From a virus (Duplodnaviria > Heunggongvirae > Uroviricota > Caudoviricetes), in the IMG/VR virus record IMGVR_UViG_3300033069_001798, positions 1 through 64,000 of that record: a DNA stretch of 64,000 nt; one strand, written 5' to 3'. The translations under genes and the position numbers were made by a program. The notes under the pieces were generated by a model. It saw only the letters and a program-made list of their open reading frames with translations. It was not told the origin of the DNA and ran no database searches. Positions 4,124 to 59,741 of the stretch are shown here, piece after piece (within the stretch, counting starts at the first letter, position 1; each line of letters opens with the position of its first letter).

Positions 4124-4135
4124 AGTAGGCCTACT

Positions 4136-8080: not shown

Positions 8081-8087
8081 AGGAACC

Positions 8088-8294: not shown

Positions 8295-8324
8295 GATGAC
8301 TAAAAACTGTCAGCTGGTGTTACG

Positions 8325-16720: not shown

Positions 16721-17480
16721 CAGCTTGTTCACGTTGTGCAACATTGTGATCATGCGTTGCACACAAACTTGAACACCAACGTCTTTGATTAAATGCTTTT
16801 ACTGAACCAAGTGTGATAGGTTCATGAGGCAAGAATGATTTCGAACAACGTATGCAAAATTTTGGTTCGAAATCATTAATATCAAATCTATTCTGCAACT
16901 CTGGTCTATGTTTACCGGTCATAGATTTTGATATTTTCAATCGTACATCTTCTGAACGATGCAAACCACTATTTTTCTTGTTACGATACAAGGTTGAACA
17001 TCTTCTAGAACAAAATTTTTGTGAAATAAATCCCTTAAGCCTCGATGCTGTCAATGCAGCGTGAGGATATATCATATTTTCGCATCCTGAACATGGTTTT
17101 GGTTTGGCATCTGGATGTGATGCATCAATTCTGCGCATGTGTGATGTCGACATCTTCAATCTAGTTTCATCGCTCGGACTTTTTATACCTTGACCGCCCA
17201 CTGTCAGATTATAACCGTGTGTTGAATCGTTAGATTTGAATTCGAGAATGAATTTTGTTTCATATTCATACGCCTCTTCTTCAGTGCTATATTCACCTAG
17301 TATATCAAATGTGAATTGATCGATCCCGTAGAGTTTTATCGCTCTTGCTACGTAACTTTTAGGCGTTCCGGCTTTAGATGATATGACATGTCTGTTAAGA
17401 CGTCCAAAAGGATTGTTAGATTTTCCAACATACTTTTTACCATCAACGTTATTTGTAATGCAATATACGTAAGAAGCCAC
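16611..17480 (-). CDS. GIY-YIG homing endonuclease with NUMOD-like C-terminal repeats
   Basis: 'YVYCITNNVDGKKYVGKSNNPFGRLNRH…YNLTVGG' is a GIY-YIG core. It is followed by repeated 'R(L)K(M/I)S.S..G' NUMOD3-like motifs. The gene is markedly AT-rich relative to its flanks. Confidence 0.8.
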   Translation of the reverse strand: MASYVYCITNNVDGKKYVGKSNNPFGRLNRHVISSKAGTPKSYVARAIKLYGIDQFTFDILGEYSTEEEAYEYETKFILEFKSNDSTHGYNLTVGGQGIKSPSDETRLKMSTSHMRRIDASHPDAKPKPCSGCENMIYPHAALTASRLKGFISQKFCSRRCSTLYRNKKNSGLHRSEDVRLKISKSMTGKHRPELQNRFDINDFEPKFCIRCSKSFLPHEPITLGSVKAFNQRRWCSSLCATHDHNVAQREQAAIRRRLRSDCARTTHPNDQNHRRCTPCTTAATILPL

Positions 17481-17856
17481 GTTTATTAGGTATTGACGAT
17501 CTCACTGCTACATCCCTAACAAATGGGTCTTGCATCAAGTAAGGCTCTGGCGCGATAGGCGGCACTGGTCCGTAATCATCTTCAACTGTTACGTACTCGT
17601 CTCTCAAGTGAGCTGTGATGTCATCATCTGGCTCTCCGAACTCTAGCTTTCCTAGAGCTTCCCTTGAGTTGATGTCTGAACCATTGTTAGGCGAGCGACC
17701 AGCGGGTTGAGGCGGCGATGCAAAGCCGCCGCCAACCTCTCTGAGGATCTCTTCTAGCACAATCTGCCGCACACGAGCGATCGTTATCTTCACCCTTGTA
17801 AGTATCCGGATTACAATGGTGCCATGAAGATATGGTGCTACATATGCATATCGCAA
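17449..17856 (-). CDS. hypothetical protein with the shared N-terminal 'ARVRQIVLEEILRE' motif (true start possibly GTG at 17793)
   Basis: 'KITIARVRQIVLEEILREVGGGFASPP…'. Confidence 0.4.
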   Translation of the reverse strand: MRYAYVAPYLHGTIVIRILTRVKITIARVRQIVLEEILREVGGGFASPPQPAGRSPNNGSDINSREALGKLEFGEPDDDITAHLRDEYVTVEDDYGPVPPIAPEPYLMQDPFVRDVAVRSSIPNKRGFLRILHYK

Positions 17857-20197: not shown

Positions 20198-21013
20198 ATG
20201 CTTATAAGAATAAACGAGCTGAAGGAGCTCATCAGGGTAGCAGTCCTCAACGAAGTTGACATTGAAGACGTGGGTGACGTCTGCTTCGCAGCAGGTTCTA
20301 CTCACGTCATGAAGACGTGCAGCATCGGCGGTAACAAGTACTACTTGAAGTTCTCCGACGAGTCGTTGTTTGATGGCGTCAACCCAAGCTTGCAGATCCT
20401 AGTTGAGTACCTTGCGTACAAGGTTTACTCTCTGTACCCAGGCGTCGACATCCCAAACGTTGAGCTCGTGTACGATCGGAAAGGTGGCAAGGTTGGTCTT
20501 GCAACGTCGGCGGTTGCAGGCAAGATGGCTCTTGAAACGATCCCAGCTAAAGAGCTAGCGGGCATGCTTTCAGCTGGTGTCTACGTTGACATCTTCCTTG
20601 CAAACTGGGACGTCATCGGCACCGGATCGGGCAACGTCATCGCAGACAAAGGGAAGGCAACGCGCATCGACCCAGGCGGATCTTTGACGTTCAGAGCGCA
20701 AGGCGGTAGAAAAGGCGGAAAGTTCGGTGATAAGCCAGGCGAGCTGAAGACGATGCTAGATCCATCGTTCGGTGGCGCCGGGCGTGTCTACCAGCACGCA
20801 GACTTGGTGAAAGCTGGGAAGACTTTTGCATCAGTTCCTTGGAGCAGCATAGCCTCAACGCTCAGCGCCGCAAGCAAAGAAGTTGCTGAAGAGCTCAAGT
20901 CGCATGGAATGAACGATCTGGCTGCCGAATGGAACGGCGAAGCAAAGCTGATCGCTGGAACGCTGAAAGCCCGACATGCTGAAGTTATGCAGCACGTCGA
21001 GCACGTTGCGTAA
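20198..21013 (+). CDS. hypothetical protein with the shared N-terminal motif (MLIRINELKELIRVAVLNE…)
   Basis: AAGGAAAA Shine-Dalgarno 7 nt upstream of ATG 20198. The N-terminus matches the shared-motif family. A Gly-rich 'GGRKGGKFGDKPGE' stretch follows. Confidence 0.5.
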   Translation: MLIRINELKELIRVAVLNEVDIEDVGDVCFAAGSTHVMKTCSIGGNKYYLKFSDESLFDGVNPSLQILVEYLAYKVYSLYPGVDIPNVELVYDRKGGKVGLATSAVAGKMALETIPAKELAGMLSAGVYVDIFLANWDVIGTGSGNVIADKGKATRIDPGGSLTFRAQGGRKGGKFGDKPGELKTMLDPSFGGAGRVYQHADLVKAGKTFASVPWSSIASTLSAASKEVAEELKSHGMNDLAAEWNGEAKLIAGTLKARHAEVMQHVEHVA

Positions 21014-21297
21014 GCAGTTGAAATGTCGGATAATGATCGCCACAATACGCGCCCACGGGAAGTGTCATAGGGCGAAACCGCCACTGTAACACGATCACCT
21101 GGGATCAACCTGATCCTGTTGATGCGAAGCTTGCCAGACAGCGTGGCTAGAACTTTATTGCCGCCTTCTACGATGACGCTAAACAGCGTCCCAGGTAGAG
21201 CTTCATCCACCACGCCTTGAAGCTCAATCGCGTCTTCCCGCTCTGTTGTTTGCTCGGACGACTGACTGGCTTGGTTCATCTTGTTCTTGTTTTTCAT
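20788..21297 (-). CDS. infA: translation initiation factor IF-1 homolog (S1-like OB fold) with an anomalous 78-codon 3' extension
   Basis: 'IELQGVVDEALPGTLFSVIVEGGNKVLATLSGKLRINRIRLIPGDRVTVAVSPYDTSRGRVLWR' aligns along its full length with bacterial IF-1. The ORF lacks a stop where IF-1 ends (about 21021) and reads on antisense into the 3' end of the 20198-21013 gene. Confidence 0.7.
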   Translation of the reverse strand: MKNKNKMNQASQSSEQTTEREDAIELQGVVDEALPGTLFSVIVEGGNKVLATLSGKLRINRIRLIPGDRVTVAVSPYDTSRGRVLWRSLSDISTAYATCSTCCITSACRAFSVPAISFASPFHSAARSFIPCDLSSSATSLLAALSVEAMLLQGTDAKVFPAFTKSACW

Positions 21298-21460
21298 TCT
21301 CTATCTCTTCGCTCGGACTGCCCAATCCTGGAGGTGGAGGCACGACACCATTGTCTGACCTGCTTATACCTCCACCGCCGAACATCCCAGCAGATCGATT
21401 CATCATTCTTTCGATCTCTTCACGAACGATCTGCCTTACTCTTTCGACGTTGATTCGCAT
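21224..21460 (-). CDS. small protein with the shared N-terminal motif (MRINVERVRQIVREEIERMM…) and a Gly/Pro-rich tail
   Basis: Read directly from the sequence. Confidence 0.4.
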   Translation of the reverse strand: MRINVERVRQIVREEIERMMNRSAGMFGGGGISRSDNGVVPPPPGLGSPSEEIENEKQEQDEPSQSVVRANNRAGRRD

Positions 21461-22064: not shown

Positions 22065-22076
22065 CCTTGTCGGGCA

Positions 22077-22714: not shown

Positions 22715-22717
22715 AAG

Positions 22718-22957
22718 ATGAAACCGGGCGACTTGGTAGAGACGCAGAGAGCAAGGGTTGTCACGGCCCTCAATTGCTCTGACCCTAACAAGTACTACGT
22801 GTTGAGCCCAAAAGACATTGGCATCGTCGTTCAAGTAGATGTTGGAAGCAACGAAATCCCAGACTACACTCTGTACGGGACGATCGTTGTATACTTTCCA
22901 AGCCTTGGTCGACTAACAACTGCTCATGAATCGCAGATAAAGCTTCTAGAAGCCTAG
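22718..22957 (+). CDS. small GDLV-family protein
   Basis: 'MKPGDLVETQ…VVYFPSLGRLTTAHESQIKLLEA'. Confidence 0.55.
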   Translation: MKPGDLVETQRARVVTALNCSDPNKYYVLSPKDIGIVVQVDVGSNEIPDYTLYGTIVVYFPSLGRLTTAHESQIKLLEA

Positions 22958-26471: not shown

Positions 26472-26708
26472 TCACTTCTTCTTGTTGCCAAACACTAGCT
26501 TTTTCAGCATCTTGTTGAACTCTCTAGCCTCACTGACCTTTGCAATACCAATCTTCCCAGGATACTGTAGACGCAGTTGAGCGTAAAATTTCTTCAGCTG
26601 CGCGGGCGTAACAGGCTTCAAGGGCGCGGGCTTAAATTCTCCTTTTTGTTCAGACTGAACCCATTCTAGCTTCGTAGTAAGATCACTAAGGTTTCTAGCG
26701 GTGGACAA
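26472..26708 (-). CDS. small lysine-rich protein
   Basis: Read directly from the sequence. Confidence 0.35.
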   Translation of the reverse strand: MSTARNLSDLTTKLEWVQSEQKGEFKPAPLKPVTPAQLKKFYAQLRLQYPGKIGIAKVSEAREFNKMLKKLVFGNKKK

Positions 26709-28558
26709 AAAGGGGCGTCGCCCTCGGGGCCGCCTCCTTCTTCGTTCTCTTCACCTTCAAGATCTTCAGTGATAGGACCGTTATCGGGCGGATCAGTCTT
26801 CATGGAGTGATCATCAAGTGTTGTCACTTCAGGCGCTGGATCATCCTCGTACTTCTCGAGGCGAGCAACACGCTTCGAGAGCTCGATCGTAGACTCAGAT
26901 GCTTCAGCGGCAGACATGAACCGACGCCTCTTCACGTACTCTTGGATGAAGGCGATGGGCCAATTCTTGACGAGCTCGTAAGCCTCATCAGCGTAAGTTC
27001 CAAGGATCGACCTGACAACATCACCGTCCATTGTCTTCACAAACAACATCTCATCGAAGCGACCAGGGCGAAGGATTGCCTCATCAAGACTGTTACGATT
27101 GTTGACAGTTGCGATGACAAGCTTCACGTGCCTCTGGAAGAACTCGAGCGTCTCGAGCAGCTGCGCCTGCGCATGCGCTCTGTCAAAGTCATCCAAGATG
27201 ATTGCATCGGGTTCAAAGATCGTGATAGCCTCAAAGAGCGTAGAGCTCTCAAGGTTAGCAACATCCTCAACGCGAATTCGGAAGCTGCGCATGCCAAGGT
27301 TCTCCACGATGGTTCGAGCCATCGTAGACTTTCCAGTCCCCGGCGGACCGTACAGCATCACTGACCGCGGCACGTCAGCGTCGATGCACCGCTTCAAGTA
27401 TGCTGCGTACGAAGTTGCTCTCTCAGATGCAAGGGGATGAAAGGCATCGTCAGATTCAAACACGATCCTAGAATCATCGTCAGACGTTCCGACGCGCTTG
27501 TTCTGCCTCATGACGAGGTTTGAATCTTTCAAAGATTCCCACAAGATCTTCTTGATGAGAGCTTGAGCCTCTTTCAACTTCGCAGTGTCAACGTAGATGT
27601 TGCCGGGAACGTTGAGACGGGTGTTCATCGTGTAACCCATCTTGATGCCATCAGCATCGATCATGCGAATGATCGTAGCATCATCGTTGGTGCGAATGTT
27701 CTCGTAAGGATATCGACTGACGACCTTGATGATCGTAGAGTTGAAGTCCCTGCTGTAAGGTGCAGACCACTCATCACCAGAGAAGAAATCATCTCCCCAC
27801 ACTTCAAACTGCTCAATGAGCACTTTGGAGATCGAGAAGCTGCTCTTCAAACCGTTCCACCAGGTGGGATCTTCCAAGAAGGGCGTTGATGCTTGAAAGA
27901 TGTCAGTTCCAACGTGGATGACTTGCTTCACCTTGCTCACGTTGAAGAAATCTCTAACTTGCGTCACTAGCGTCTTGTTCTTTTCAGTCATTTTGTCTCG
28001 TGGTGCTAAAAATTCAACGTTGTAACGAACTCGCTTGTTTGCTTTTGACGTGAAAGTCACGTCGCACTCTTCGTACTTCCCGTCTACGATCGCCGCCCCC
28101 ACGACCTTTGTAACATGCTCATAATCTGGATCGACGTACGTCATGATGAAGAATGCTCGACCCGTTGTCAGGGGTGCTAGTTTCTTGATGACTACGTTCT
28201 CAAAAGAATTCTTTGCAGTGTTTTCAACATCTGACCAATAGATCTTTGGGATGCTGATGAACTCGTAACCTGCTTGTGGGTAAGCGCACCGCTTGCAGAA
28301 ACGAGCGTCATTATCGTTCATCGCCTTGCACTGGCTGCACTCTTTTGCCTCGCCGCAATTGTCATACTCATGAACAACATCGTCGATGAACGTGCAACAC
28401 ATGTCGCCGTGCTCTTCTTGGATGTTCCTTAGATCTGACACCTTCACTTTCAAAGTGCTGTGGAACGTCGTGATGCTATCGATGACAGATTTCTTGGCTT
28501 TGGTGCTTGGTGCCATAAGTTGAAATGTACCCTGCAGATCAGCTATTTTACAAGCCAC
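26666..28558 (-). CDS. AAA+ ATPase with an N-terminal Cys-rich zinc-finger region
   Basis: 'VMLYGPPGTGKST' is a Walker A motif and 'AIILDDFD' a Walker B motif. The N-terminus has 'CSQCKAMNDNDARFCKRCAYP'. Confidence 0.8.
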   Translation of the reverse strand: MACKIADLQGTFQLMAPSTKAKKSVIDSITTFHSTLKVKVSDLRNIQEEHGDMCCTFIDDVVHEYDNCGEAKECSQCKAMNDNDARFCKRCAYPQAGYEFISIPKIYWSDVENTAKNSFENVVIKKLAPLTTGRAFFIMTYVDPDYEHVTKVVGAAIVDGKYEECDVTFTSKANKRVRYNVEFLAPRDKMTEKNKTLVTQVRDFFNVSKVKQVIHVGTDIFQASTPFLEDPTWWNGLKSSFSISKVLIEQFEVWGDDFFSGDEWSAPYSRDFNSTIIKVVSRYPYENIRTNDDATIIRMIDADGIKMGYTMNTRLNVPGNIYVDTAKLKEAQALIKKILWESLKDSNLVMRQNKRVGTSDDDSRIVFESDDAFHPLASERATSYAAYLKRCIDADVPRSVMLYGPPGTGKSTMARTIVENLGMRSFRIRVEDVANLESSTLFEAITIFEPDAIILDDFDRAHAQAQLLETLEFFQRHVKLVIATVNNRNSLDEAILRPGRFDEMLFVKTMDGDVVRSILGTYADEAYELVKNWPIAFIQEYVKRRRFMSAAEASESTIELSKRVARLEKYEDDPAPEVTTLDDHSMKTDPPDNGPITEDLEGEENEEGGGPEGDAPFCPPLETLVILLRS

Positions 28559-31643: not shown

Positions 31644-32318
31644 TCATCTGCCGTACTTCTTGTCAAAGTACGTGTTACCAAGTTGGTACAGAACATTTTC
31701 TAGCGATGATTGCTTCACGTCGTGCTTTGCCAGCTGCTGAGCAACTTCACCATGCCTTTGGATCAAGCTTGATTTTGCCGCGCTTTGTCCTGGCCCGTCG
31801 TAAGAGTAGTTCAATACCTTGTTTGGATCTTTCACAAGCTCGCAGTCATCGCATTCTTCTGGTGTCTTTGGATCATCACGATCATCAAACGGTTTCTTGT
31901 CAACGTCGCTGCGCTTCGAAGAGTAATATTGCCACAACTTCTCGGCAGAAGAATTTGTCGATACCCTGTCTGGCATCAAGCCACCGTCGCCGTCGCTCAT
32001 GACAATATCGTACATGAGCGGACCGTAACCTTTAGACGCTGCAGATCGATGAACTTCGATAGCGTCATTGCACTCGTCAGAGTGTGGGATGGCTTCGATG
32101 AAACCGTAGATAAATTCATCGAGAGGTTTGGAGAATCGCATGCTCCAGAAACCCGGTTCTTGCATGACAGACGCTAGAGTCTTGGGCTCGTAAAGAACGT
32201 AGTAAATCTTACCTTCTCGCTGTCCCCTATAAAGAGCTAGCCCAGCATCTATAGCTTGATCTCCGCCCACTGCTGCTTCAATGAGGTGTGATATGTACGA
32301 CTTCAAGTGTTGCTTCAT
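31644..32318 (-). CDS. hypothetical protein
   Basis: ORF. Confidence 0.5.
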   Translation of the reverse strand: MKQHLKSYISHLIEAAVGGDQAIDAGLALYRGQREGKIYYVLYEPKTLASVMQEPGFWSMRFSKPLDEFIYGFIEAIPHSDECNDAIEVHRSAASKGYGPLMYDIVMSDGDGGLMPDRVSTNSSAEKLWQYYSSKRSDVDKKPFDDRDDPKTPEECDDCELVKDPNKVLNYSYDGPGQSAAKSSLIQRHGEVAQQLAKHDVKQSSLENVLYQLGNTYFDKKYGR

Positions 32319-32878
32319 AGGATTCCCACCCTCTTGAACAGCTTTCGATTGTAGTCGCTGAAAGATCCTTGCAGGAGAACAGCGGGTTCAACCCACTTCA
32401 CCACACCAGATTCATCAGTGTCAACGTTACCCATGACTGAGCAAGAGTAAGTCGTCACGAAGTAACCAGCATCATCTTTCTGCGAGAACACTTTTGTTAG
32501 ATTTACAGCAGTGTAACCAGTCTCTTCTTCAAGCTCTCTTGCAGCGGCTTCAACCTCAACCTCACCAGGATCCACTTTCCCACCCGGCAATCCAAAATCG
32601 TTTGGATCATCTTTCCTAGAGACTGCCAAGATCTTTCCGTTTGGGTTCCTAACAAGAACGCATGCAGCTCGCGGGGCATTCAAAGCTGCGAGCGTCTCGT
32701 CTTCTTCGTCATTTGCCAACGAACCACCCACTTCGACGTTTGTTATCGGCGGTCGAGGATCTGTCAACATCTCACGGATGAGCTGCTTCAGAAGCTTAAC
32801 TTCTTTGGTTCTGGAAGTGGACATGATTCGATCTGATCGCAGCTCGTTATGTTCTTGACGCAAGACGGAGCGAGCCAA
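32315..32878 (-). CDS. Nudix hydrolase
   Basis: Nudix box 'GLPGGKVDPGEVEVEAAARELEEETG'. Confidence 0.8.
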   Translation of the reverse strand: MARSVLRQEHNELRSDRIMSTSRTKEVKLLKQLIREMLTDPRPPITNVEVGGSLANDEEDETLAALNAPRAACVLVRNPNGKILAVSRKDDPNDFGLPGGKVDPGEVEVEAAARELEEETGYTAVNLTKVFSQKDDAGYFVTTYSCSVMGNVDTDESGVVKWVEPAVLLQGSFSDYNRKLFKRVGIL

Positions 32879-33169: not shown

Positions 33170-33517
33170 TCAAATTTCTCTCAAGTACCCAAACTTAGCA
33201 TTGATGAGCCCAACAAGCGCTGAATCTGTTTCCTTGAAATCATTGTTGTGCTTGCGGAATAGCTTCGCGTACTTTGAAGATGCATAATCGATGATCTCAC
33301 GTCTGATATTATCAGGCAGAGGTTCATCATTGATCTCTTCTGTCTTTCTGATCCAGAAAACGGCAGCAGTGCGACCATTTGATGCTAGCGACGGCGCCAT
33401 GTGCCTCTTTAGCCGGGCGATGAACTTTGTGTCAAGCTTGAGCTCAGCAATGATAGTTGAGACGTACTCTTTCAGCAGCTGTTGATCGCTCATGTACCCT
33501 CCAAAAACGGTACCCAA
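33170..33517 (-). CDS. hypothetical protein
   Basis: ORF. Confidence 0.45.
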   Translation of the reverse strand: MGTVFGGYMSDQQLLKEYVSTIIAELKLDTKFIARLKRHMAPSLASNGRTAAVFWIRKTEEINDEPLPDNIRREIIDYASSKYAKLFRKHNNDFKETDSALVGLINAKFGYLREI

Positions 33518-44570: not shown

Positions 44571-44840
44571 TTACCATCGTAAAGCTTTGTGAGCTAACTT
44601 TGCACTCTTCTTTGCGCCAGCGAGCTGCACGTAAGCCTCGTAAGGAACTGCTTTTAGCGCAAGAGCCGCCATGTCCAGCGTTGAGAAGAATTCATCCAAC
44701 GACTTCTGGTCAGTGATTGCACCTGACTTCACAGAAGCAACGATCATCTCTTGAAGCTCGGCTCTAACACGTTCTTTCTTCATGTAGGAAGAAGAAGCCT
44801 TGATAGCTTCAAGGATGAACTCTTTCAAGATGTTGACCAT
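44571..44840 (-). CDS. hypothetical small helical protein
   Basis: ORF. Confidence 0.45.
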   Translation of the reverse strand: MVNILKEFILEAIKASSSYMKKERVRAELQEMIVASVKSGAITDQKSLDEFFSTLDMAALALKAVPYEAYVQLAGAKKSAKLAHKALRW

Positions 44841-46166: not shown

Positions 46167-46829
46167 TCATCTGACAGATCGATGAAATGAATCGATGATG
46201 TTTACAACTCGAGGGTCAAGAACAACTGCTGAAACGGCAGGAGCATACACTCCTTCGCTAACATCTGCACCGCTGTCAATGATCACGTCGTAACCAATGT
46301 TTCTGAAGATGAAGTTCGTTGACTTGGTTGAGCCCTTTATCTGGCTGACGATCTGGTACAGTTGACGACCAGGTGACATTTCTGACAGCAACTGCTGATC
46401 GTACTCAGTACCCACCTCTGATGGCCAAATATCTCGCTTACGATCTTCATCGTTTTGCGCATTGTCAACAGCAGAACCATACAACTTCCGAAGCTTGCTC
46501 ACATCGCTCTTCAATGCTGCTTCATTGTACGTTGAAGTGTCAAGCACTCGATCAGTTTTCACTTCAAAGATGTACACGTCGCTCATGCGGGTCAGGTACG
46601 CTGGTTTTTCTGGCCACCCGTACTCAAGATAAAACGACCAGATCCCAAATATGTCTCCATAAGTGAAATCACGATTCAGTGAAACTGGGATTCCTGGAGA
46701 GTTATTTTCAAATCGAACGTAGACGGGCTTGTTGTCCCAACGTTGCTGAAACTCTTCAAAAGTTCTCTTGGGCGAACGTTGCGATTCCCGAATGATCTGA
46801 CGTAGTTGACCGATTGTCAGGCGCATCAC
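46167..46829 (-). CDS. hypothetical protein with the shared N-terminal motif (MMRLTIGQLRQIIRESQRS)
   Basis: Read directly from the sequence. Confidence 0.55.
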   Translation of the reverse strand: MMRLTIGQLRQIIRESQRSPKRTFEEFQQRWDNKPVYVRFENNSPGIPVSLNRDFTYGDIFGIWSFYLEYGWPEKPAYLTRMSDVYIFEVKTDRVLDTSTYNEAALKSDVSKLRKLYGSAVDNAQNDEDRKRDIWPSEVGTEYDQQLLSEMSPGRQLYQIVSQIKGSTKSTNFIFRNIGYDVIIDSGADVSEGVYAPAVSAVVLDPRVVNIIDSFHRSVR

Positions 46830-47905
46830 AGTTGCTTGATCTTCTGAATCACTTCTGCGTAATCTGACACGAAGGGTGAATCTTTCGGGATTCCAGCTTC
46901 AATAGCAACTTTGACTTGAGCTTGCAAGTTCTTCACGTAGAAGAGCATCATAGACTTCTTCACGTTTGACAGCAGCTGGGCCTCGAGCTGCTGGCGCTCT
47001 TCGGGTTTCAAGTTATTGAGCTTCTCAGATCCCTTCACCTTCTTGCCCAACTTTGTCTCGAGCTCCTGGATGCTCTTTGCAGTCAGGACGGCTTCGGCTT
47101 GCTGAAGAACGCTGCTCAACGTCTTCTTGATGATCTCTCTAGAAACAGCTTGCAGCTTGCGAGCTCGATCAGATTCTAGAGCTTTCGCTACTAGCTTCTT
47201 GTTCGTCACAACTTGGCCGATCGGCGGGAGCTTCTTCTTTTTCTTCCCTTTGCCGTCTTCATGAAGAGCCCCTTCGCCAAAGAAGCCACCGGGCATCGGA
47301 TCAGCAACGTAACCACCAGAAGGAGACATCGGTCCGTGCGGGGCAGAGTACCCACCGCCACTCTTCTTGTAAGCGTTTTTGATTCCCTTCACAGTCGTAG
47401 CCAAAGAACCACCAGACAGAACGTTCATCAAGTGAAGAGCTGATCCTGGCGACTTTGCAGCCGCCAAGCCTGTCATCACGTAACCCGGGTACGCAAAGAA
47501 AGCGCAAAGAGCAATGTCATTGTTGCGAAATGCATCCCAAGTCGCTTCGTACACATCGTTATACTCTGACTTGATCTTCGCAAGAGCATCTTTCTCTTCA
47601 TCAAAGATCTCTTTGAACTCGGTTGTCAACCACGGGATGATCGACACCATGAAAGCTTCAAATGAGACCTTGAACAGAGTTTGAGCTCGCTTGCTGACTT
47701 CTTTCGTCTTGCCAGCAGCAACTTGCACAACGTCAACGAACGGCTTAACAAACGTTGAATAAAGAGCATCTTGTGAAGCAAAATGTGCTCCGAAAGGCAT
47801 CATGTCGTACGCAGCACCCATCATGCCACCGTACCCATCATCCTCTTTCAGGATCTCTCTTATGTACTCACGTAGGATCCTTTTGCTGCGTTGGCTTTTC
47901 ATCAC
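46826..47905 (-). CDS. hypothetical protein with the shared N-terminal motif (SKRILREYIREILKEDDGYGG)
   Basis: Read directly from the sequence; ATGA junction. Confidence 0.55.
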   Translation of the reverse strand: MMKSQRSKRILREYIREILKEDDGYGGMMGAAYDMMPFGAHFASQDALYSTFVKPFVDVVQVAAGKTKEVSKRAQTLFKVSFEAFMVSIIPWLTTEFKEIFDEEKDALAKIKSEYNDVYEATWDAFRNNDIALCAFFAYPGYVMTGLAAAKSPGSALHLMNVLSGGSLATTVKGIKNAYKKSGGGYSAPHGPMSPSGGYVADPMPGGFFGEGALHEDGKGKKKKKLPPIGQVVTNKKLVAKALESDRARKLQAVSREIIKKTLSSVLQQAEAVLTAKSIQELETKLGKKVKGSEKLNNLKPEERQQLEAQLLSNVKKSMMLFYVKNLQAQVKVAIEAGIPKDSPFVSDYAEVIQKIKQL

Positions 47906-48639: not shown

Positions 48640-48672
48640 TGCATGCTCCGCGAGCTACGATACTTAAGAAGC

Positions 48673-49305
48673 ATGCAAATTGGTCTCATCGCCGCCGCAG
48701 GGAAACCTCTGCACGCAGGTCACTATGGTCTGATACAGATCGCCGCTAGTGAAAACGACATCGTGAAGCTTTTCGTTTCAACCAGCGACCGGAAGCGACC
48801 AGGCGAGCTTCCCATACTTGGCAGCGACATGCTGCGCATCTGGAAAGAGCACCTCGAAGCAATCATGCCAGAGAACGTTGAGATAACGTACGGCGGATCA
48901 CCCATCGCAAACATCTGGAAAGTCTTGGGCGAAGCTAACGAGTCTGGTAACATGGACGACACTTTCACAGTGTATGCAGACCCTGACGACCTTGCCACGA
49001 ACTTCCCAGAAAAATCACTTAATAAGTACGCTGGAAACCTTTGGAACAATAAGAAGATTATTCTAAAGCCCATCCAGAGGACACAGACGGTGGATGTAAG
49101 CGGTACCAAGATGCGTAGCTACTTGGCCGCAGGCGACAAGGCTTCTTTCGTCAAGAACTTGCCTCCTGGCGTCGATGGTGAAGCCATCTGGAACATCCTC
49201 AGCAAGCAGACCACCGAAGCGCTGCTGAAGAGCTGGATAAGCTTGCTTATCGGCTTACGTAAGGGTCCCCAAGGCAGCGCAAGCGAGAAGCGTGGCAAGC
49301 CTTGA
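48673..49305 (+). CDS. cytidylyltransferase-like nucleotidyltransferase (NMNAT/PPAT-like)
   Basis: 'AAGKPLHAGH' is an (H/T)xGH motif and 'VSGTKMRSY' an ISSTxIR-like motif. Internal ATG of track ORF 48295-49305. Transcribed divergently from the Nudix gene. Confidence 0.55.
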   Translation: MQIGLIAAAGKPLHAGHYGLIQIAASENDIVKLFVSTSDRKRPGELPILGSDMLRIWKEHLEAIMPENVEITYGGSPIANIWKVLGEANESGNMDDTFTVYADPDDLATNFPEKSLNKYAGNLWNNKKIILKPIQRTQTVDVSGTKMRSYLAAGDKASFVKNLPPGVDGEAIWNILSKQTTEALLKSWISLLIGLRKGPQGSASEKRGKP

Positions 49306-50642
49306 GACACGATCTCAAACTTGAACGCTTTCCTGAACATGGACCGCGGTACCATGAGGAACCCGTTTCGGTTCACGATGAAGACGCCGTCAACGTGCTC
49401 GAAGACGTTGTCAATGTTGATGGAGTTGAACCACTCGTTGAAGAACTCGCTTGGATCATCGAACGCAGCATCTTTCAACGTTGAGAACAGAAGCTCAAAC
49501 TTCTCGAAGCCAGTGAGGACGCTCTTGTCCCCCGTAGCGCGCTCAACGCGCTTTGCAACGTCGATGAACGTTGGCTTGTCAACCTTGACTTCTTTGTCGT
49601 TCAAGGATATCCTTGTGTCGACTGGCGCTGTGCCATGATCGTGATCGATACCACTGTGATCGTGCTTGAACTTTTGTATCGACTTCAGGATTCCTCTGAA
49701 CGCAATGAACCTATCGCGGCCGATCTCGCCTTTCTCAACGATCATCTCGTAATCGTCTTCAACGAAGACTTTCACGAAAGAGATCATGTTAGCTTCTGAT
49801 TCTGACAAGTCGCCTTTCTCAAAGAAGCCTGGCCTGCGAGCAAGAGCAACAAAGTTCTTGATCTGCGTCATGATCGAGATGAGGCGCTTTCGTGGTTTGG
49901 CAAAAGCAGCTCTTCCCTCTGTACCTGGACGAATCATTGAACCAGCACCGTCCAAAGCTTTCACTTCCCACGAGCGTCCGTCAACAGTGACGATATCGTA
50001 AGGAACTTTTCCACCTTGCATCTGACCGCCGAGGATGAACTCGAGCCATTCTTCGCCCGGACCCATCGTGCGACCAACCTCGTCACCAGAGGATCCAGCT
50101 CCGGCTTTCGCTGAACCAAACGACTTACCAGACTTCTTCACTTCTTTCGGCCACGTGTACCACTTCAATGGCATCACGTCGTCGATCGACATGTAAACCT
50201 TCTTCTTCGGCGGTGGGAGCTGCTTGTCGAAAGATTTCTCTGCCTTTGGTGCTTTTGAACGAACGTAACCACGAAGCTCAGCGTTGTACTCTGAGTACTC
50301 TTGCTCGGCTTTCTTAAGAGCATCTTCAAGCGTCTTTCGTTGCTTCGCAGCTAGCTTTGGATCGTAGGTGTACTGTGGGTTGTCCTTCAACCTCTTCTTC
50401 GCCGTGTCTGGCGTTACGCCCATCTCTTTAGCTTTGGCGAACAGAGCTTCTTTCTTCTTTTGGTTATCATCCCACGCAACAAGATCAGCTTGTGCAGCCT
50501 CGTAACGTTCTTTTGCTGCGACTTCCTGAGCATCGTACTCAGAACCAACTTTAAACTCAGATTCATTGATGAACTTTTTGATCAATGATCGTAGTTGCTG
50601 TTCAACAACTACTGCATTCAGTCTCGCTCTTAGGTTCATCAT
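49119..50642 (-). CDS. hypothetical protein (507 aa) with a Lys/Glu-rich N-terminal coiled coil
   Basis: ORF. Its 3' end overlaps the NMNAT-like gene convergently by 187 nt. Confidence 0.5.
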   Translation of the reverse strand: MMNLRARLNAVVVEQQLRSLIKKFINESEFKVGSEYDAQEVAAKERYEAAQADLVAWDDNQKKKEALFAKAKEMGVTPDTAKKRLKDNPQYTYDPKLAAKQRKTLEDALKKAEQEYSEYNAELRGYVRSKAPKAEKSFDKQLPPPKKKVYMSIDDVMPLKWYTWPKEVKKSGKSFGSAKAGAGSSGDEVGRTMGPGEEWLEFILGGQMQGGKVPYDIVTVDGRSWEVKALDGAGSMIRPGTEGRAAFAKPRKRLISIMTQIKNFVALARRPGFFEKGDLSESEANMISFVKVFVEDDYEMIVEKGEIGRDRFIAFRGILKSIQKFKHDHSGIDHDHGTAPVDTRISLNDKEVKVDKPTFIDVAKRVERATGDKSVLTGFEKFELLFSTLKDAAFDDPSEFFNEWFNSINIDNVFEHVDGVFIVNRNGFLMVPRSMFRKAFKFEIVSQGLPRFSLALPWGPLRKPISKLIQLFSSASVVCLLRMFQMASPSTPGGKFLTKEALSPAAK

Positions 50643-50656: not shown

Positions 50657-52774
50657 TTAGAGACCCACAACAGATTTCACGTAATTGAGCATAACATTTA
50701 CGTTATCACCAAACATCTCAGGACGTTGAGCAGCTTGTTCTTTTACTTCAACTACAAATGCAGACAAGATCTTGTCTGCAATCGCTCGAAGCTTCGATCT
50801 TCTCAGAACTTCGACCAAGTCTTCAAATTTTGCAATGTCTGATGACTTGAAACCCTTGCCAAACATCATAGTAGTTATAGTATCCGGATCGTCAGACACA
50901 AATTCTCTTGAAAGTGTTTTCCAATCCTTGAGTGGTTTCTTGGGATCTTTTCCCCTCTTGGTCTGGACGACTTTGTACAAACCCTTGTCGAAGTCAACAA
51001 CGTAACGTGTACGATCTAGATCATCTTGCGTTGCATCTCTAAACTCTAGCGTTGAAGCAAACCTGTTGATAACGTTCAAAAGGATGTTTCTCACCACGCC
51101 CTTGACGCCAGAATAATCTTTGTGTCCTTTCGTTGGCGATGTTCCAAATCTCGACCATGTAAGATAACTAACGTTGCCAATCATCACGTCAACTTGAACG
51201 TTGACGCCCGAAGACGTGCCGGACAACGGATAGCTGATAGAAACAATGTTTGATCCAACCTTATCAACAGACTCAGCACCAAACATGTCAGATGCATAGC
51301 TGAACAGCTCTTCTCTAGTGCCGTCAAACTCTACAGCAACATCAATATCACCCATGATTGGTTTCTTTCCAGTTGAACCAACGGGTGCTACGTTCTTGCA
51401 ACCCATATCCTGAAGATCTTGGACGAGAGTTGGCCATAGGGCTTTGAAATCTTCGACGGAGATCGGGCGAACGCTATCGAAAGCGTGACCTCCTTCAACT
51501 ATGAATCGTGATTCGCCCAAGTCCATCTTGGGTATACCTTTGCGCCCGTACTTAAAGAGAGATAGGATCTGATGAACGGGAGCAAATGCACCAGTGAACT
51601 TATATGCATTTCCTTTGTAAAAGAAGACAATGCCTTCCATTGCAGCGTTGATGTTATCAACTGAACCAAGGCGGCTCATCTCTTTCTGCAATATCTCCAT
51701 CGCAGCGACGTTACCAGAAGCCTTGATCGCAGAAATTGCTTTGTTAACTTGTGCTTTGATCCTGCTAACTTCTTCATCAGACTTTGCTATCAACGTAGAT
51801 GAAACGCCGTTTAGAACACCGATCGCAAACTCATTGATCGCTGACTCGATGGGAAGCATCATGTTCTTCACCATCACTTCAGATGCTTTCACAAATTCAA
51901 CAGCGGCTGCAGCATCACTTGGCGTCTTTGACATCTTCTTCAGCTGAGGAATTCCAGGAGCGCCTGGTGCTTCAATAGCTCGCTCGATGCATGCTGCTTT
52001 CAGTTCTGGCGACATCTTGTAGTTTGAAATTTCATCGCGCAAGAGCGACCTAAGGTAGTCATAGATTGTTGCGTTATCATCAACACCTGCTGCGGCTTGA
52101 GCAGCTTCGATCTTTTCAATAGCAGACCTTGCGATAGTACCATCTGACAGCTGCTTCAAGTTAAGCAACGAAGGACCACGAATTCGCCAATCTTTCATGC
52201 TCAGAGCTCGTTGCATCTGCTCAATCTTTGACGTAAGCAACGTTATGCCAGAATCATCATCATCTTGCGAAATACTACCATCACTATCAACTTTAAAGAT
52301 TGGCCAACCATGAAAAACTATGTTGTTTGTATCGTAGTTGATCGTATTTGGATCCGGTGCGTATATGATCTCAATAGAGTACCATCGATTACCGCGAGGC
52401 CCAAAAATTTTCTTTCGTGCCGGGGGTGGTAGAGCGGACAGTGAATCATTTAGAACTTTGAATGCTGAGTTGAACGCAAGCTCAACATTTCCTCTACCGA
52501 AGAATTTCTTAGCAAGAGCGCTTGCATCCATACCACCAGTCTTGATGTCAGAGCCGTTCCTGGCCGTCTTCAACTGTTCAGAGTTTACATCGTAAGTAAA
52601 GACAAGGTTCATGCCGTCAAGCTTTTCAGACACCTTTTCAAGCTTTCCTTCAGCCGCGCTTGTGATAACGTCTTTGATTTCACCAAACGTAAGCTCAAGA
52701 TTTTCAGCGAGATGTTGCAGATGCCCGACGGCACCACCTTCATTGACGTAATTCTTTTTCGACGCTCTTAGCAT
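50657..52774 (-). CDS. composite protein: N-terminal KxDG ligase-like motif plus C-terminal Pol-beta-superfamily nucleotidyltransferase motif
   Basis: 'EKLDGMN' resembles nucleotidyltransferase motif I of Rnl2-type ligases. 'VGSTGKKPIMGDIDVAVEFD' is a GS-x9-DxD motif. Confidence 0.5.
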   Translation of the reverse strand: MLRASKKNYVNEGGAVGHLQHLAENLELTFGEIKDVITSAAEGKLEKVSEKLDGMNLVFTYDVNSEQLKTARNGSDIKTGGMDASALAKKFFGRGNVELAFNSAFKVLNDSLSALPPPARKKIFGPRGNRWYSIEIIYAPDPNTINYDTNNIVFHGWPIFKVDSDGSISQDDDDSGITLLTSKIEQMQRALSMKDWRIRGPSLLNLKQLSDGTIARSAIEKIEAAQAAAGVDDNATIYDYLRSLLRDEISNYKMSPELKAACIERAIEAPGAPGIPQLKKMSKTPSDAAAAVEFVKASEVMVKNMMLPIESAINEFAIGVLNGVSSTLIAKSDEEVSRIKAQVNKAISAIKASGNVAAMEILQKEMSRLGSVDNINAAMEGIVFFYKGNAYKFTGAFAPVHQILSLFKYGRKGIPKMDLGESRFIVEGGHAFDSVRPISVEDFKALWPTLVQDLQDMGCKNVAPVGSTGKKPIMGDIDVAVEFDGTREELFSYASDMFGAESVDKVGSNIVSISYPLSGTSSGVNVQVDVMIGNVSYLTWSRFGTSPTKGHKDYSGVKGVVRNILLNVINRFASTLEFRDATQDDLDRTRYVVDFDKGLYKVVQTKRGKDPKKPLKDWKTLSREFVSDDPDTITTMMFGKGFKSSDIAKFEDLVEVLRRSKLRAIADKILSAFVVEVKEQAAQRPEMFGDNVNVMLNYVKSVVGL

Positions 52775-53030
52775 TTTGAAGCTTCTCAGCCTTTCTCTTT
52801 GCAGACGCTAGCTCTCCACGAAGACGTTGCACAAGTCGAGCGTAGTTGGCTCGAGCTTCTGAACCTTTCTTCTGACGATCGCGCCACTTGATGAGGTCTT
52901 CGATCCTGGCTTCAAGATCTCTGATGTGCTTCTTTGACCCGTGCGGCACTCTTGAGCCGTCAGAAACATCAGCCTCTCTAACCTTGCTCTCAACAACGAG
53001 CTTGATGTATTCTTTAAGATCGTCATCCAT
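52740..53030 (-). CDS. hypothetical small charged protein
   Basis: ORF. Confidence 0.4.
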   Translation of the reverse strand: MDDDLKEYIKLVVESKVREADVSDGSRVPHGSKKHIRDLEARIEDLIKWRDRQKKGSEARANYARLVQRLRGELASAKRKAEKLQNAKSVEKELRQ

Positions 53031-54931: not shown

Positions 54932-55683
54932 ATGATGATCATCCCACCGACGATCGCTGCTTCTGTGAAGCTCGATCCGTGGGTGTATATGCGACGTTCG
55001 CGATCAATGATCGCAGATCCACCTTTGTACTTCAGATCGCGCTCGGTGCCAACTCTGTTTGACACAATGACATTTGCCCTTGTGTCTTCAACAAGCTCAA
55101 CCCAGGCTGAATCTGGGTACCCATAGGCGCCGCCCCAGTTCGTCAGAAGAGCAATCATGTCAACAGAGCCTTTGCTGTAAAATTTCTGCCCAGGCTTGTA
55201 AAAAGCGTACGATTCTCTGTAGTGATTCATTGCATCCCTGCAAACTAGCGCTCCCAGCCGACCGACTGGCGTCACGACTAGTGCATGAAGGGCTTCTGAG
55301 GGCTGCGCCCAAATGTTGTCATTACCCCATAGGTTGCTTTTCTGCGAATTCCCTGCGAGGCCCGAGGGACCCACGATGGCCGCTGAGTTGTACAGCTTAC
55401 CTTCATAGAGCTCCGGGTAGCCAAAGACAATGTAGCAGTTGTAACGATTGGCAATTGGGATGAACGCTTCTGTCTGATACCCATCACGTTCCTGAGCACA
55501 CTCCATTGCTTCACGAGGAGATCGCAACGCAAACCCAGAAGTGCAAAGCTCAGGCAGAACGATGACACGGGCACCTTTCGCCGCGGCTTCGAAAGCTAGT
55601 TCAGTAGCAACAGCCAGATTCTTCTGGACGTTGAGCAGCTCTGGGTTGAACTGCGCCGCGGCAACTATTGCTACGTCGTTCAT
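54928..55683 (-). CDS. carbon-nitrogen hydrolase (nitrilase superfamily)
   Basis: 'VAIVAAAQF…AAKGARVIVLPELCTSGF' shows the Glu of the catalytic triad. 'LVCRDAMN' holds the Cys. Confidence 0.65.
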   Translation of the reverse strand: MNDVAIVAAAQFNPELLNVQKNLAVATELAFEAAAKGARVIVLPELCTSGFALRSPREAMECAQERDGYQTEAFIPIANRYNCYIVFGYPELYEGKLYNSAAIVGPSGLAGNSQKSNLWGNDNIWAQPSEALHALVVTPVGRLGALVCRDAMNHYRESYAFYKPGQKFYSKGSVDMIALLTNWGGAYGYPDSAWVELVEDTRANVIVSNRVGTERDLKYKGGSAIIDRERRIYTHGSSFTEAAIVGGMIII

Positions 55684-57352
55684 TGATTCTCTTTCTTGCA
55701 GTTAACACTAGCGGAAACGTAGAGTCGCAATCTGCGCAGTAAATTTCGTCAGCTTCTGCTTGGTGGGTGTTCGCGCCGCCGCAAGTTGGGCAAGGTGCAT
55801 CACCCGTGTGATGATACTCTTGCTCTTCTGCAGATGGCTCAAGACCCTCAAGGCTCTGCATGATGTCAGGGAAAACATCGTACATGTACTCTAGGGCTTC
55901 TGGGCTGAATTCACGATCACCAAAAGCATCGTTAAGCGCAGACTCCAACGAAACTGGGTCTGTGATAGATGATGCACCAGAAGAAACGAGCTGTTCAACT
56001 TCGCTCCTAGAGACTAGATCTTCATCAACGGGTGAGCCCATCGTCTCAAGAACGATCGTCAGCGGACCCTTCTTGATTGTGCGAGTCCGGGAGCGAGATT
56101 CACCAACTGGTTCCCAAACTTGGGTGTGATCGCCAGTTGGCTTCTTAACCTTCAGCTTGCCATCTTCAGGCGAGACAATGCCAGACTCTCCTGGCTTGAA
56201 CTCTGATGCACCCATCTTGCCAAAGACTTTGCCCTTGTAGCGAGTGACAACAGAAGCACCGTTGTACTTCTGGCCGCCCTTGTAAACCTTGTACGAATCC
56301 TTGCTGGCTTTTGGCTCTCTTGGTGCCTTTGGAGCTGCTGGCTCACTTGTTGACTCTGCGCCCGACTCTTCTGGTGCAGCACTCGTTGGTGCAGTTGGAT
56401 TGTACAGCTTCTCACCACCACGTGCACGCCTGATCGATTTGTCAAGAAATTCGCGGAAACCATCTAGATCTCTGACGATGTCTGGATGTGCTTTCATGAG
56501 AGCAACATCAGAAGCCGATAGCTCACCCGAACGGCTCAGCATCTTGATGTAGTCGTTCATGCTCGACAAGACGATGATCTCAAGATCCTCTGGCGACTTA
56601 TCTTGCATGTCAGCAACCCACTGTGCCTTCAGCATTGCCTTATCGACAGCTTGCTTCGCGCCAGCGACTGAAAAACCAAGATCCTTGGCGATATCTTGGA
56701 ACGATGCTCCGGAGACGTCTGACACAGTGTTGAACTTTGCCCTCTCTGGCACGTCTGATTGTACGTCGTCAAGGGGGTCTTCAACTGGGTTCTTCATGAC
56801 CTTCTTCAGGTCTCTCTTCGACTTGTCAAACTTTGCCATGTACTCACCGCCATGAACACCGGCTGGGATCTTTGTGACAGGCGGAAGCGGTCCAACGACT
56901 GGTCCGAAATTCTTTGGCTTCTTGTCAAATGGCGCTTCAGAAACAACGTTAAGTTCTTGCAGCTGCTTGCGAACAGCTAGCCTGATGAGTGATTCAGCTG
57001 CCGTGTCTTTTTTAGCGCTCTTTGTGCCCGTCGTCTTCTTGTTTTTCATCGTATCTTCCTTTTCGTCGGGCACGTCAAGGGCCCCCACTAGCTTTTCATA
57101 CACGTCAGAAACTTTTTCGTCTGGCAGATCGTCGCTTAGGGCCTTCACAGCAACTTGAAATTCAGCTTTGTTGTTTGGCTTGTAGTTCGGATTGCTAGGA
57201 TCAGTAAGTATTGCTGACTGATCAACAACTGGGTTGACATCAACCGGATCATCCGCCTCTTCAAGGCAAACTTGCCCGAACTTCTTGTTATCAAGAAGCT
57301 CTGATACAAGCTCACGCAACGCTGTCCTGGTTACAGTGATCTTTTGTGCCAT
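55601..57352 (-). CDS. hypothetical protein (583 aa) with the N-terminal motif 'ITVTRTALRELVSELL'
   Basis: ORF. Confidence 0.5.
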   Translation of the reverse strand: MAQKITVTRTALRELVSELLDNKKFGQVCLEEADDPVDVNPVVDQSAILTDPSNPNYKPNNKAEFQVAVKALSDDLPDEKVSDVYEKLVGALDVPDEKEDTMKNKKTTGTKSAKKDTAAESLIRLAVRKQLQELNVVSEAPFDKKPKNFGPVVGPLPPVTKIPAGVHGGEYMAKFDKSKRDLKKVMKNPVEDPLDDVQSDVPERAKFNTVSDVSGASFQDIAKDLGFSVAGAKQAVDKAMLKAQWVADMQDKSPEDLEIIVLSSMNDYIKMLSRSGELSASDVALMKAHPDIVRDLDGFREFLDKSIRRARGGEKLYNPTAPTSAAPEESGAESTSEPAAPKAPREPKASKDSYKVYKGGQKYNGASVVTRYKGKVFGKMGASEFKPGESGIVSPEDGKLKVKKPTGDHTQVWEPVGESRSRTRTIKKGPLTIVLETMGSPVDEDLVSRSEVEQLVSSGASSITDPVSLESALNDAFGDREFSPEALEYMYDVFPDIMQSLEGLEPSAEEQEYHHTGDAPCPTCGGANTHQAEADEIYCADCDSTFPLVLTARKRINERRSNSCRGAVQPRAAQRPEESGCCY

Positions 57353-58890: not shown

Positions 58891-59182
58891 TTTCCTCTAT
58901 TAGAGTATACATCGCTTCAGCGTCAAGTTCATGCAATTTTTTGCCGTAATCTCTCTTTGGCTTTGGAGCATCATCGAGAGCTGCACGTATTTTCTTCGTC
59001 ACTAGGCCTTTCAAGACGTTGTAACCCGGCCCAGCGTCATCAATAACTTGCCTAGCGAACTCATCAAATAGTTCTTGAAGAGAAACACCATGATGGAAAG
59101 ATTTAACGCGTAGTTCAGCATGCACCTCTTTGTCAAGGTTGATGTGCAAGCTTTTCTTTGTGACAAGCGCGTCAGATTTCAT
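58829..59182 (-). CDS. hypothetical protein
   Basis: ORF. Confidence 0.45.
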   Translation of the reverse strand: MKSDALVTKKSLHINLDKEVHAELRVKSFHHGVSLQELFDEFARQVIDDAGPGYNVLKGLVTKKIRAALDDAPKPKRDYGKKLHELDAEAMYTLIEENERREKLEEIARREAAGESD

Positions 59183-59741
59183 GAACTAAGACTGCTCCTC
59201 CTCCGCCGACGCCTCCATCACCTGCTCGATCAGCTGGAGGTGCAGTGAATTCATCTTCCATTTCATCCCTTGACTTACCGATCTCCATGCCATGCTCGTT
59301 GCGAAGCTGCTCTTTGAATGAATCAGCAACTGACTCATCGTAATTCTTCGACAAGAAGTTTGACGCCCTACGCAAGATCGTATTTCTAACTTCTAGCAAG
59401 GAGTCGTAGTTGTCTATCAACCTGACAACGCCGTTGACAAAAGAGCCCACGTCAATGTCTTCAACAGTAAGCTTCTTTGGTTCATCGCTAGAATCATCAC
59501 CCTTGTCGTCATCTTCACCAGCTTCAACGATTCGACGCACAGTCATTCGCCAATCGCGACCCTCGGTCTTTGCGGACTTTGCTTCTTTTTCATAGTCATT
59601 CAAGTAACGATCGACCTGAGAGTCTAGTGAATCTTCTCCCGGCTCTTCTGTTGGTGGCGTTGGCGCTTCGCCTTCTTCTCTGAGAATCTCTTCTCTTAGA
59701 ACACGCCGAAGATCACCCAAGCGAACCTTAAAAGTCTTCAT
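59172..59741 (-). CDS. hypothetical protein with the shared N-terminal motif (VRLGDLRRVLREEILREEGEAP)
   Basis: Read directly from the sequence. Confidence 0.55.
   Translation of the reverse strand: MKTFKVRLGDLRRVLREEILREEGEAPTPPTEEPGEDSLDSQVDRYLNDYEKEAKSAKTEGRDWRMTVRRIVEAGEDDDKGDDSSDEPKKLTVEDIDVGSFVNGVVRLIDNYDSLLEVRNTILRRASNFLSKNYDESVADSFKEQLRNEHGMEIGKSRDEMEDEFTAPPADRAGDGGVGGGGAVLVHEI

Follow-up and report, generated by a model that had tools for sequence, protein, structure and literature searches.

The 64,000-nucleotide stretch of DNA analysed here (the window) comprises positions 1 to 64,000 of the virus record IMGVR_UViG_3300033069_001798, and at positions 46,167 to 47,905 it holds two adjacent genes whose products begin with a short peptide that we call the tag. 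About 12 genes of the window carry it. The tag is N-terminal, ends in [ILV]-x-E, sits on proteins that are otherwise unrelated, and is associated in other phages with head modules that encode a Peptidase_S77 (S77) prohead protease and a Gp23 capsid protein. In our view it most likely represents a T4-style capsid-targeting propeptide in a new and widespread sequence variant.

The source of the window is an uncultured huge phage of ~314 kb: one window protein is exactly encoded on two other contigs, one from Logan (92 kb) and one from JGI (3300014059 Ga0119868_1000001, 313,755 bp, in which the window lies at about 210-274 kb), and others are present at 99% identity on an 81.6-kb IMG/VR contig. 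The window has no DNA match in INPHARED, and the INPHARED searches found no cultured relative. Its Pfam matches comprise a Major-Vault-Protein (MVP)-like protein, a Cpn60 chaperonin, an AAA ATPase, dCMP deaminase, FEN nuclease, RNA ligase, IF-1, Fe/Mn superoxide dismutase, a papain-like protease, NUDIX, CN-hydrolase, ADP-ribosylglycohydrolase and HhH-GPD glycosylase, a content that reads as a T4-like auxiliary-gene repertoire. No structural genes were found within the 64 kb.

The tag and its carriers in the window

The refined consensus of the tag is M-[KR]-[IL]-[TS]-x-x-x-L-[RK]-x-[IL]-[IV]-[RK]-E-[EA]-[ILV], followed by a helix-breaking Gly/Pro-rich linker; a second flavour (flavour B) reads LL[RK]EY[IV]R..L.E-DDGYGG. 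The logo was drawn from 89 non-redundant instances taken from the window, 33 related loci, the phage genome LR756508 described below and protease-centred loci. The best counts are those of R/K9 (85/89), I/L/V11 (84/89), I/V12 (82/89), L8 (80/89) and E14 (68/89), accompanied by M1, K/R2, I/L/V/M3, T/S4, R/K13, E/A15, I/L/V16, V/L at 19-20 and E22. The tag begins exactly on the start codon in 62 of the 89 instances, and its end pattern [ILV]-[RK]-E ([IV]12-[RK]13-E14) fits, as a sequence pattern only, the [L/I]-x-E rule of the T4 protease gp21.

The hydrophobic residues are spaced in a heptad-like manner (positions 8, 11/12, 15/16 and 19/20), and we lean towards picturing the tag as an amphipathic heptad-like helix of about 16-22 residues, joined by a flexible linker to diverse cargo domains. 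An earlier note on this DNA had called the segment amphipathic in all members; its amphipathicity is high in some of them and only average in others: the hydrophobic moment is in the top 5-10% of window N-termini for 46167, 46826, 32315, 21224 and 49119 (genes are named by their lower coordinate), but merely average for 20198, 55601, 59172 and 31644. The Gly/Pro-rich sequence that it saw behind the segment is present in most members.

Conserved tag residues are encoded by differing synonymous codons (AGG, CGG, CGT and AGA for Arg; CTA, CTT, CTG and TTG for Leu), and selection therefore acts on the peptide and not on DNA or RNA. The tag is also retained in orthologues at 33-50% protein identity. 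It is under protein-level selection.

The earlier note had placed the motif on at least seven proteins. All seven ORFs (open reading frames) that it listed exist and bear the segment at or next to the start codon, and they are indeed otherwise unrelated, as no similarity is seen among them past residue 28. Two of its three weaker matches, 49119-50642 and 52740-53030, are plausible members because their orthologues retain the segment, whereas the third, 23162-23572, was unconvincing and was rejected as a tagged gene (no real match, and a later part that is hydrophobic by eye).

A profile built from 39 instances, none of them from the window, finds eight window genes at 4 bits or more, against a mean of 0.23 and a maximum of 2 in 100 residue-shuffled proteomes, and four at 8 bits or more, against 0.01. 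The profile scan that had been proposed as a check gives, for the window, enrichment beyond chance. Seven of the eight hits lie at residues 1-30, and the eighth is at the internal Met 35980 of the FEN frame. With this profile 46167 scores 21.3 bits, 21224 14.1 bits (it is also the top match of a profile made from LR756508 only), 59172 9.8 bits, 32315 6.1 bits and 20198 5.2 bits at residue 3. In leave-one-out scans 21224, 17449 and 46167 each rank first among 126 genes and 59172 third; 20198 (rank 20/126), 46826 and 55601 score weakly, yet their best match is always N-terminal.

Orthologues in related loci carry the tag as well. The orthologue of 17449 in L148 (16911-17228) has the N-terminus MKIRMGTLRRMLREA and that of 46167 in L002 has MKATLKELRQIVRLE. 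The 55601 gene, whose profile score is weak, keeps its tag in L001 (MSKVTVTEEAIREMVREVLDN), L010, L012, L002 and L021, and the degenerate 44571 has orthologues with a canonical tag in L001 (MKLSLSRLRSLIREAIS), L011 (MKVSIRQLRSLIEARI), L012 and L020. In the 46826 family, 26 homologues at 33-97% identity retain LLREYI..L.ED-DGYG, with the helix end [LI]-x-E-[DE] kept directly before the disordered linker. AlphaFold2, run on this alignment, predicts a helix over residues 2-23, disorder over residues 24-44 and an all-helical body (predicted TM score, pTM, 0.72); a Foldseek search of the model against BFVD and the PDB gave nothing below E = 0.25.

Searched against Pfam, PHROGs, NCBIfam and PDB sequences, the cargo domains matched nothing except NUDIX for 32315, where NCBIfam Nudix models cover residues 49-160; the 46167 protein was among those without a match in Pfam, PHROG and NCBIfam. 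A single-sequence AlphaFold2 model of 20198 (predicted local distance difference test, pLDDT, 39.5) was unusable. By eye only, a PD-(D/E)xK-like YDIV..WEVKALD string can be seen in the body of 49119. Residues 1-5 of 59172, MKTFK, are the same as in the T4 internal protein IPI (MKTFKEF...), which may be chance. The true start of 17449 is probably the GTG at 17793. The Pfam FEN domains stop near residue 206 of the 397-aa FEN ORF and the internal tag at 35980 lies well past them; the ORF at 35648-35980 may be separate from the FEN gene.

Table 1. Tagged genes of the window and head genes of LR756508
DNA	Position	Strand	Feature	Tag or remark
Window	17449..17793	-	Strong member, ~114-aa protein	VKITIARVRQIVLEEILRE, then GGG/Pro-rich sequence
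Window	20198..21013	+	Weak member, 271-aa protein	MLIRINELKELIRVAVLNE; start at 20198 assumed, not ATG at 19955
Window	21224..21460	-	Strong member, 78-aa protein	MRINVERVRQIVREEIER, then Gly/Pro-rich tail
Window	32315..32824	-	169-aa protein, missed by the earlier note	MSTSRTKEVKLLKQLIREMLTD, Pro-rich linker, NUDIX hydrolase domain
Window	33170..33493	-	Weak member, flavour B, 107-aa protein, missed by the earlier note	MSDQQLLKEYVSTIIAELK
Window	35648..35980	-	Possible separate 110-aa ORF, missed by the earlier note	MKIKLRELKSMIRTILTEG; internal Met of FEN frame; 6.5 bits
Window	44571..44840	-	Degenerate tag, 89-aa protein, missed by the earlier note	MVNILKEFILEAIKAS; 4.7-8.7 bits
Window	46167..46826	-	Strong member, 219-aa protein	MRLTIGQLRQIIRES at 46770-46826
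Window	46826..47902	-	Variant (flavour B), 358-aa all-helical protein	KRILREYIREILKEDDGYGG; tag MKSQRSKRILREYIREILKE-DDGYGG at 47831-47902
Window	49119..50642	-	Weak tag, 507-aa protein	..QQLRSLIKKFINESE; 3.6 bits; L001 orthologue starts MPTIIQKKIPEVLRHIIRQML
Window	52740..53030	-	Flavour B, 96-aa protein	MDDDLKEYIKLVVESKVRE; L001, L017 and L022 orthologues retain L.EY[IV].L[IV]
Window	55601..57352	-	Variant, 583-aa protein	MAQKITVTRTALRELVSELLDN
Window	59172..59741	-	Strong member, 189-aa acidic protein	MKTFKVRLGDLRRVLREEILRE (MKTFKVRLGDLRRVLREEILREE), then Pro/Glu-rich linker
LR756508	141950		terL	Mapped with Mel-JY01 head genes
LR756508	145763 (145763-149923)		Portal	Matches in three separated pieces
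LR756508	156480-158204		Prohead protease	Pfam Peptidase_S77 5e-26; intein present
LR756508	170106-171836		gp22-like scaffold candidate	
LR756508	171904-173538		Major capsid protein	Pfam Gp23 3e-82

Tagged genes beside the head genes of other phages

A tblastn search with the consensus tag peptide led to LR756508.1, a complete 484-kb genome named 'uncultured phage'. It was the sole match of the tag peptides by tblastn against INPHARED, and two tagged ORFs used as queries matched nothing. LR756508 and the window have almost no proteins in common. Its tagged ORFs, about 23 in number and 57-240 aa long (mostly 57-180), start MK[IL][TS]E.KLR.I[IV][KR]EEI and are mutually unrelated apart from the tag.

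The head module of LR756508 was located with the annotated head genes of Microcystis phage Mel-JY01 (Table 1). Five tagged ORFs lie immediately upstream of the protease gene and five immediately downstream, and seven more stand between the capsid gene and the tail genes (187-195 kb). Of 23 tagged ORFs of 57-180 aa, 18 fall in a 56-kb stretch at the head genes of this 484-kb genome (P about 3e-13). They occupy the slot that in T4 belongs to genes 67 and 68; these code for proteins of the prohead core and are flanked by the portal gene (20) and the protease gene (21). In LR756508 and Mel-JY01 the N-termini predicted for the capsid protein and the protease hold similar strings, LLKE|A, LISE|A and [VI]IKE|S, which would fit an [ILV]-x-E protease specificity in these lineages. 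It may be added that the intein of the LR756508 protease (L038/L034) carries a LAGLIDADG domain and that an HNH homing endonuclease follows the protease; since the portal matches in three pieces, inteins are probable there too.

Further T4-like loci, centred on the protease, were taken from IMG/VR and from GTDB contigs of metagenome-assembled genomes. Tagged ORFs lie near the S77 protease in 10 of the 16 T4-like metagenomic loci examined, directly after the protease gene in L134, L121 and L140 and a few kb downstream of it in L131, L117, L118, L108 and L136. Where both gene sets are present (L118, L121 and L136) the tagged ORFs stand between the protease and the scaffold/major capsid protein genes, and in L108 and L118 the tag forms the N-terminus of a conserved protein of the head module, a homologue of which comes after the protease in Mel-JY01 and LR756508. 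Both LR756508 and the tag-carrying T4-like loci combine the tag with an S77 protease and a gp23-type capsid in the same genome. As far as these sequences can tell, the tag is present in two or more distant lineages of huge phages and in several T4-like lineages from marine and fresh waters, including phages with a G+C content of 40% rather than 49%. A T4-type head, which for the window's phage is a prediction, is the only context common to the tag-bearing phages.

A propeptide reading and its alternatives

The capsid-targeting sequence (CTS) that T4's internal proteins IPI, IPII and IPIII carry was reportedly described by Mullaney and Black in 1996. The T4 internal proteins are diverse and have only the CTS in common, which binds the scaffolding core (PMC3012670). 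It consists of the first 10 residues of IPIII, with positions 4 and 7 acting in targeting and positions 8 and 10 in processing, and gp21 cleaves after L/I-X-E (PMC9026906). The tag resembles the CTS in being a short peptide from Met1, at the extreme N-terminus, that is the sole common part of otherwise diverse proteins, and in having an [L/I]-x-E site of the gp21 type at its end; small cargo ORFs (57-190 aa) are common in both systems. Like the T4 internal-protein genes, the tagged genes lie partly outside the head module, beside lysozyme-like, NUDIX and glycosylase/repair genes: 31644, 32315 and 33170 sit between the HhH-GPD glycosylase and lysozyme-like genes, and T4 ipII and ipIII lie between denV and e/nudE. 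In view of this similar company, that the tagged genes of the window have non-structural neighbours does not count against a CTS-like role.

There are also differences. The tag is ~16-22 residues long (MK[IL]T...LR.I[IV]RE) whereas the T4 CTS has 10 (MKTYQEFIAE), and unlike the CTS it has a Gly/Pro linker after it. Its carriers number about 12 in the window and about 23 in LR756508 compared with 3-4 in T4, and they include large proteins (about 358-583 aa) and a NUDIX enzyme, the function of the tag being predicted. A similar flavour can be seen in the gp21-cleaved propeptides of T4 gp24 (MAKINELLRE|S) and gp22 (MLKEQLIAE|A), which show a basic residue, Ile, ..L-[LI]-[RA]-E and then a small or polar residue, but these stand on shell and scaffold proteins and are not a portable tag on unrelated cargo, and the resemblance is by eye only.

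With moderate confidence we read the tag as an N-terminal prohead-core targeting propeptide that works like the T4 CTS without being homologous to it in sequence. The helix would bind the prohead scaffolding core during head assembly, by which the tagged proteins would be built into the capsid. A gp21-type (Peptidase_S77) prohead protease would then cut at the helix end, behind the conserved Glu of the [ILV]-x-E site, and this cleavage would set the mature protein free within the head, to be ejected together with the DNA. For the window's phage we infer core binding, cleavage, packaging and ejection along these lines.

Several points weigh against this reading. The tag profile gives 0 bits or less against the N-termini of T4 ipI, ipII, ipIII, gp22, gp67 and gp24, and with no detectable similarity to the T4 CTS the tag is to be seen as an analogue and not as a member of the CTS family. 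The likeness to the T4 CTS and its LxE-cutting protease drawn in the earlier note is partly supported, by the anatomy, the [L/I]-x-E end and the head-module context elsewhere, but not by the sequence. Several of the tagged genes in the window are weak or variant members. In Mel-JY01 an S77 protease occurs without the canonical tag, which means that the protease alone is not predictive of the tag. The window lacks the T4 late promoter TATAAATA, which in LR756508 is unenriched and never stands upstream of a tagged ORF.

The head genes of the window's own clade also belong here. S77 prohead proteases are encoded in LR756508 and the tagged T4-like loci. In the window, its flanks (L146, L150 and L151) and the 33 related loci, over which the search for a prohead protease gene suggested in the earlier note was made, no capsid, portal, terminase or prohead-protease gene was found. 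BLAST searches of all related loci with head proteins of Mel-JY01 and LR756508 gave none, nor did the IMG/VR contig ends and the 10 kb beyond the window in the 313.8-kb contig, and scans of IMG/VR and GTDB with an S77 alignment returned other lineages only, none of the window's clade. As no head genes were found for this clade, we infer a T4-type head for the window's phage from its gene content and from a shared 705-aa ligase-like gene (50657-52774, minus strand). The latter is common to the window, Mel-JY01 and LR756508, and lies 3-4 kb upstream of terL in the latter two; gene content and this one gene would make up the link between the window's clade and T4-type phages.

Among the alternatives, the one that survives best is a generic coiled-coil or docking helix, which would serve oligomerisation or attach the proteins to a common non-capsid hub (a cytoplasmic complex of host or phage) and would be neither cleaved nor packaged. 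The heptad-like spacing suits it, the neighbours of the tagged genes in the window are metabolic and repair genes and not structural ones, and the cargo includes an ordinary enzyme, the NUDIX hydrolase. Oligomerisation, however, needs neither a start at Met1 nor a conserved terminal Glu before a flexible linker, and the clustering of tagged ORFs in head modules by the S77 protease, in LR756508 and other T4-like contigs, speaks against it; we regard the docking helix as unlikely.

Much less probable still is that the tag addresses proteins to another phage structure or machine. The window does encode an MVP-like shell protein (12034-14775; MVP_shoulder 2e-30), a Cpn60/TCP1 chaperonin (2e-64) and an AAA ATPase, and the MVP gene neighbours tagged gene 17449 both in the window and in L148. 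LR756508, however, has about 23 tagged ORFs and no homologue of the window's MVP or chaperonin, which disfavours targeting to either and leaves the tag independent of an MVP shell, in contrast to a vault cargo signal. Neither was noted in the tag-carrying marine T4-like loci, though these were not searched for either. Known vault cargo, moreover, is recruited by a C-terminal INT domain and not by an N-terminal helix. There is thus only a faint chance that the tag sorts enzymes to a phage-built intracellular compartment or machine, such as the MVP-like shell encoded 3 kb from a tagged gene; were it so, this would be a bacteriophage protein-sorting system that re-uses a helix employed by other huge phages in head assembly.

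An amphipathic helix anchoring the proteins to the cell membrane seems to us similarly improbable: five members have the high hydrophobic moments given above, but four others are merely average, the polar face holds a conserved Glu besides Arg/Lys, unlike typical membrane-targeting helices, and the head-module context does not suit a membrane anchor. Least credible is a nucleotide-level feature (a 5' cassette spread by recent copying, a hotspot of recombination, or an element of the mRNA or of translation), for which an octamer, TA[TC]TTA[AG][GT], placed 1-16 nt upstream of seven start codons, four of them of tagged genes, could be cited, and which is excluded by the different synonymous codons for conserved residues in every copy, with retention of the tag in orthologues at 33-50% protein identity and in phages of 40% rather than 49% G+C also against it.

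The giant phages phiKZ, 201phi2-1 and SPN3US pack many proteins, and a gp21-related protease cuts their propeptides after Glu; SPN3US gp53 and gp54 are diverged paralogues with identical N-termini that are thought to be CTS-like (PMC5694885, PMC9026906). The propeptides of these phages are mostly 100-130 residues long, are shared by paralogues only and have an S/A/G-x-E cleavage motif, and no relation of the window to the three phages was found. Encapsulin cargo-loading peptides, like the tag, are short, have a flexible linker and bring unrelated enzymes into an HK97-fold shell, but they are usually C-terminal and uncleaved, have another consensus and belong to cargo genes beside the shell gene. 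The tag was rejected as such a peptide, being N-terminal and with no Pfam shell-protein family matched beside the tagged genes. A description of the motif was not found in the literature searched.

If the tag is a capsid-targeting propeptide, its sequence profile would predict from metagenomes which proteins of uncultured huge phages are packaged and ejected. In the window's phage the predicted set would include the NUDIX hydrolase, a nuclease-like protein and several orphans, and in LR756508 about 23 small orphans. Factors for anti-defence or host takeover, at work before any phage gene is expressed, would be sought first among such proteins. Further, the 'address label plus protease' scheme of T4 would be widespread and diversified in sequence, and the tag would be a new portable peptide with which foreign proteins could be loaded into large capsids.

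Other observations in the window

The 705-aa gene 50657-52774 (-) and a cytidylyltransferase-like gene at 48661-49305 (+) lie on either side of tagged gene 49119. The two proteins are fused as one 915-aa protein in LR756508 (135866-138613), and the Mel-JY01 counterpart of the pair is a single gene annotated 'cytidylyltransferase like'. An EKLDG string (KxDG, ligase-like) was spotted by eye in the 705-aa protein.

The octamer TA[TC]TTA[AG][GT] has seven copies, at 21470, 37490, 44853, 47914, 50655 and 57681 on the minus strand and at 48661 on the plus strand, each in front of a real start codon. A role as promoter or in translation initiation is conceivable; most window genes are without a Shine-Dalgarno sequence.

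The gene at 12034-14775 (+) encodes a 913-aa protein matching eukaryotic MVP domains (MVP_shoulder, Vault repeats and SPFH/Band 7), and a 64%-identical copy is present in IMG/VR contig 3300032053_000165 (L148). An MVP homologue is unusual in a phage. A 185-aa protein starting MTVIVGV.., which has the look of an Ntn/HslV-type hydrolase by eye and is without a Pfam hit, may form with the AAA ATPase and the full-length chaperonin a phage-encoded proteostasis set (62752-63309, 26666-28558 and 23535-25160, all on the minus strand).

Very large arrays of ORFs of 55-120 aa occupy 35-12018 (+), 21864-22957 (+) and 42212-43144 (-) as well as L150 1-10000, and in the 313.8-kb contig reach 10 kb or more beyond the left end of the window. 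These ORFs have only an N-terminal ..[PGS]GD[LM][LV].. motif in common, which occurs dozens of times in the window. A GDWVKLPGG string resembling this motif is found, after a tag, in the C-terminal part of the FEN ORF. Further, a 62-aa ORF at 37480-37668 (-) duplicates the N-terminus of the FEN gene (35648-36841, -) and is separated from it by a GIY-YIG homing endonuclease (36796-37479, -), an arrangement that looks like a homing-endonuclease insertion with partial duplication of its target.

The IF-1 homologue (Pfam eIF-1a 1e-18, domain at aa 24-87) lies in a 169-aa ORF at 20788-21297 (-), whose long C-terminal tail shares ~225 nt with the 3' end of the tagged gene 20198-21013 (+), which runs towards it; probably either one gene model or the other is overlong. 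Along the window, the coordinate offset to the contig IMGVR_UViG_3300033121_002167 (L003, L146 and L147) shifts from 7790 to 9324 and then to 11877, so that this 99%-identical contig has ~4 kb of extra insertions, probably mobile endonuclease genes.

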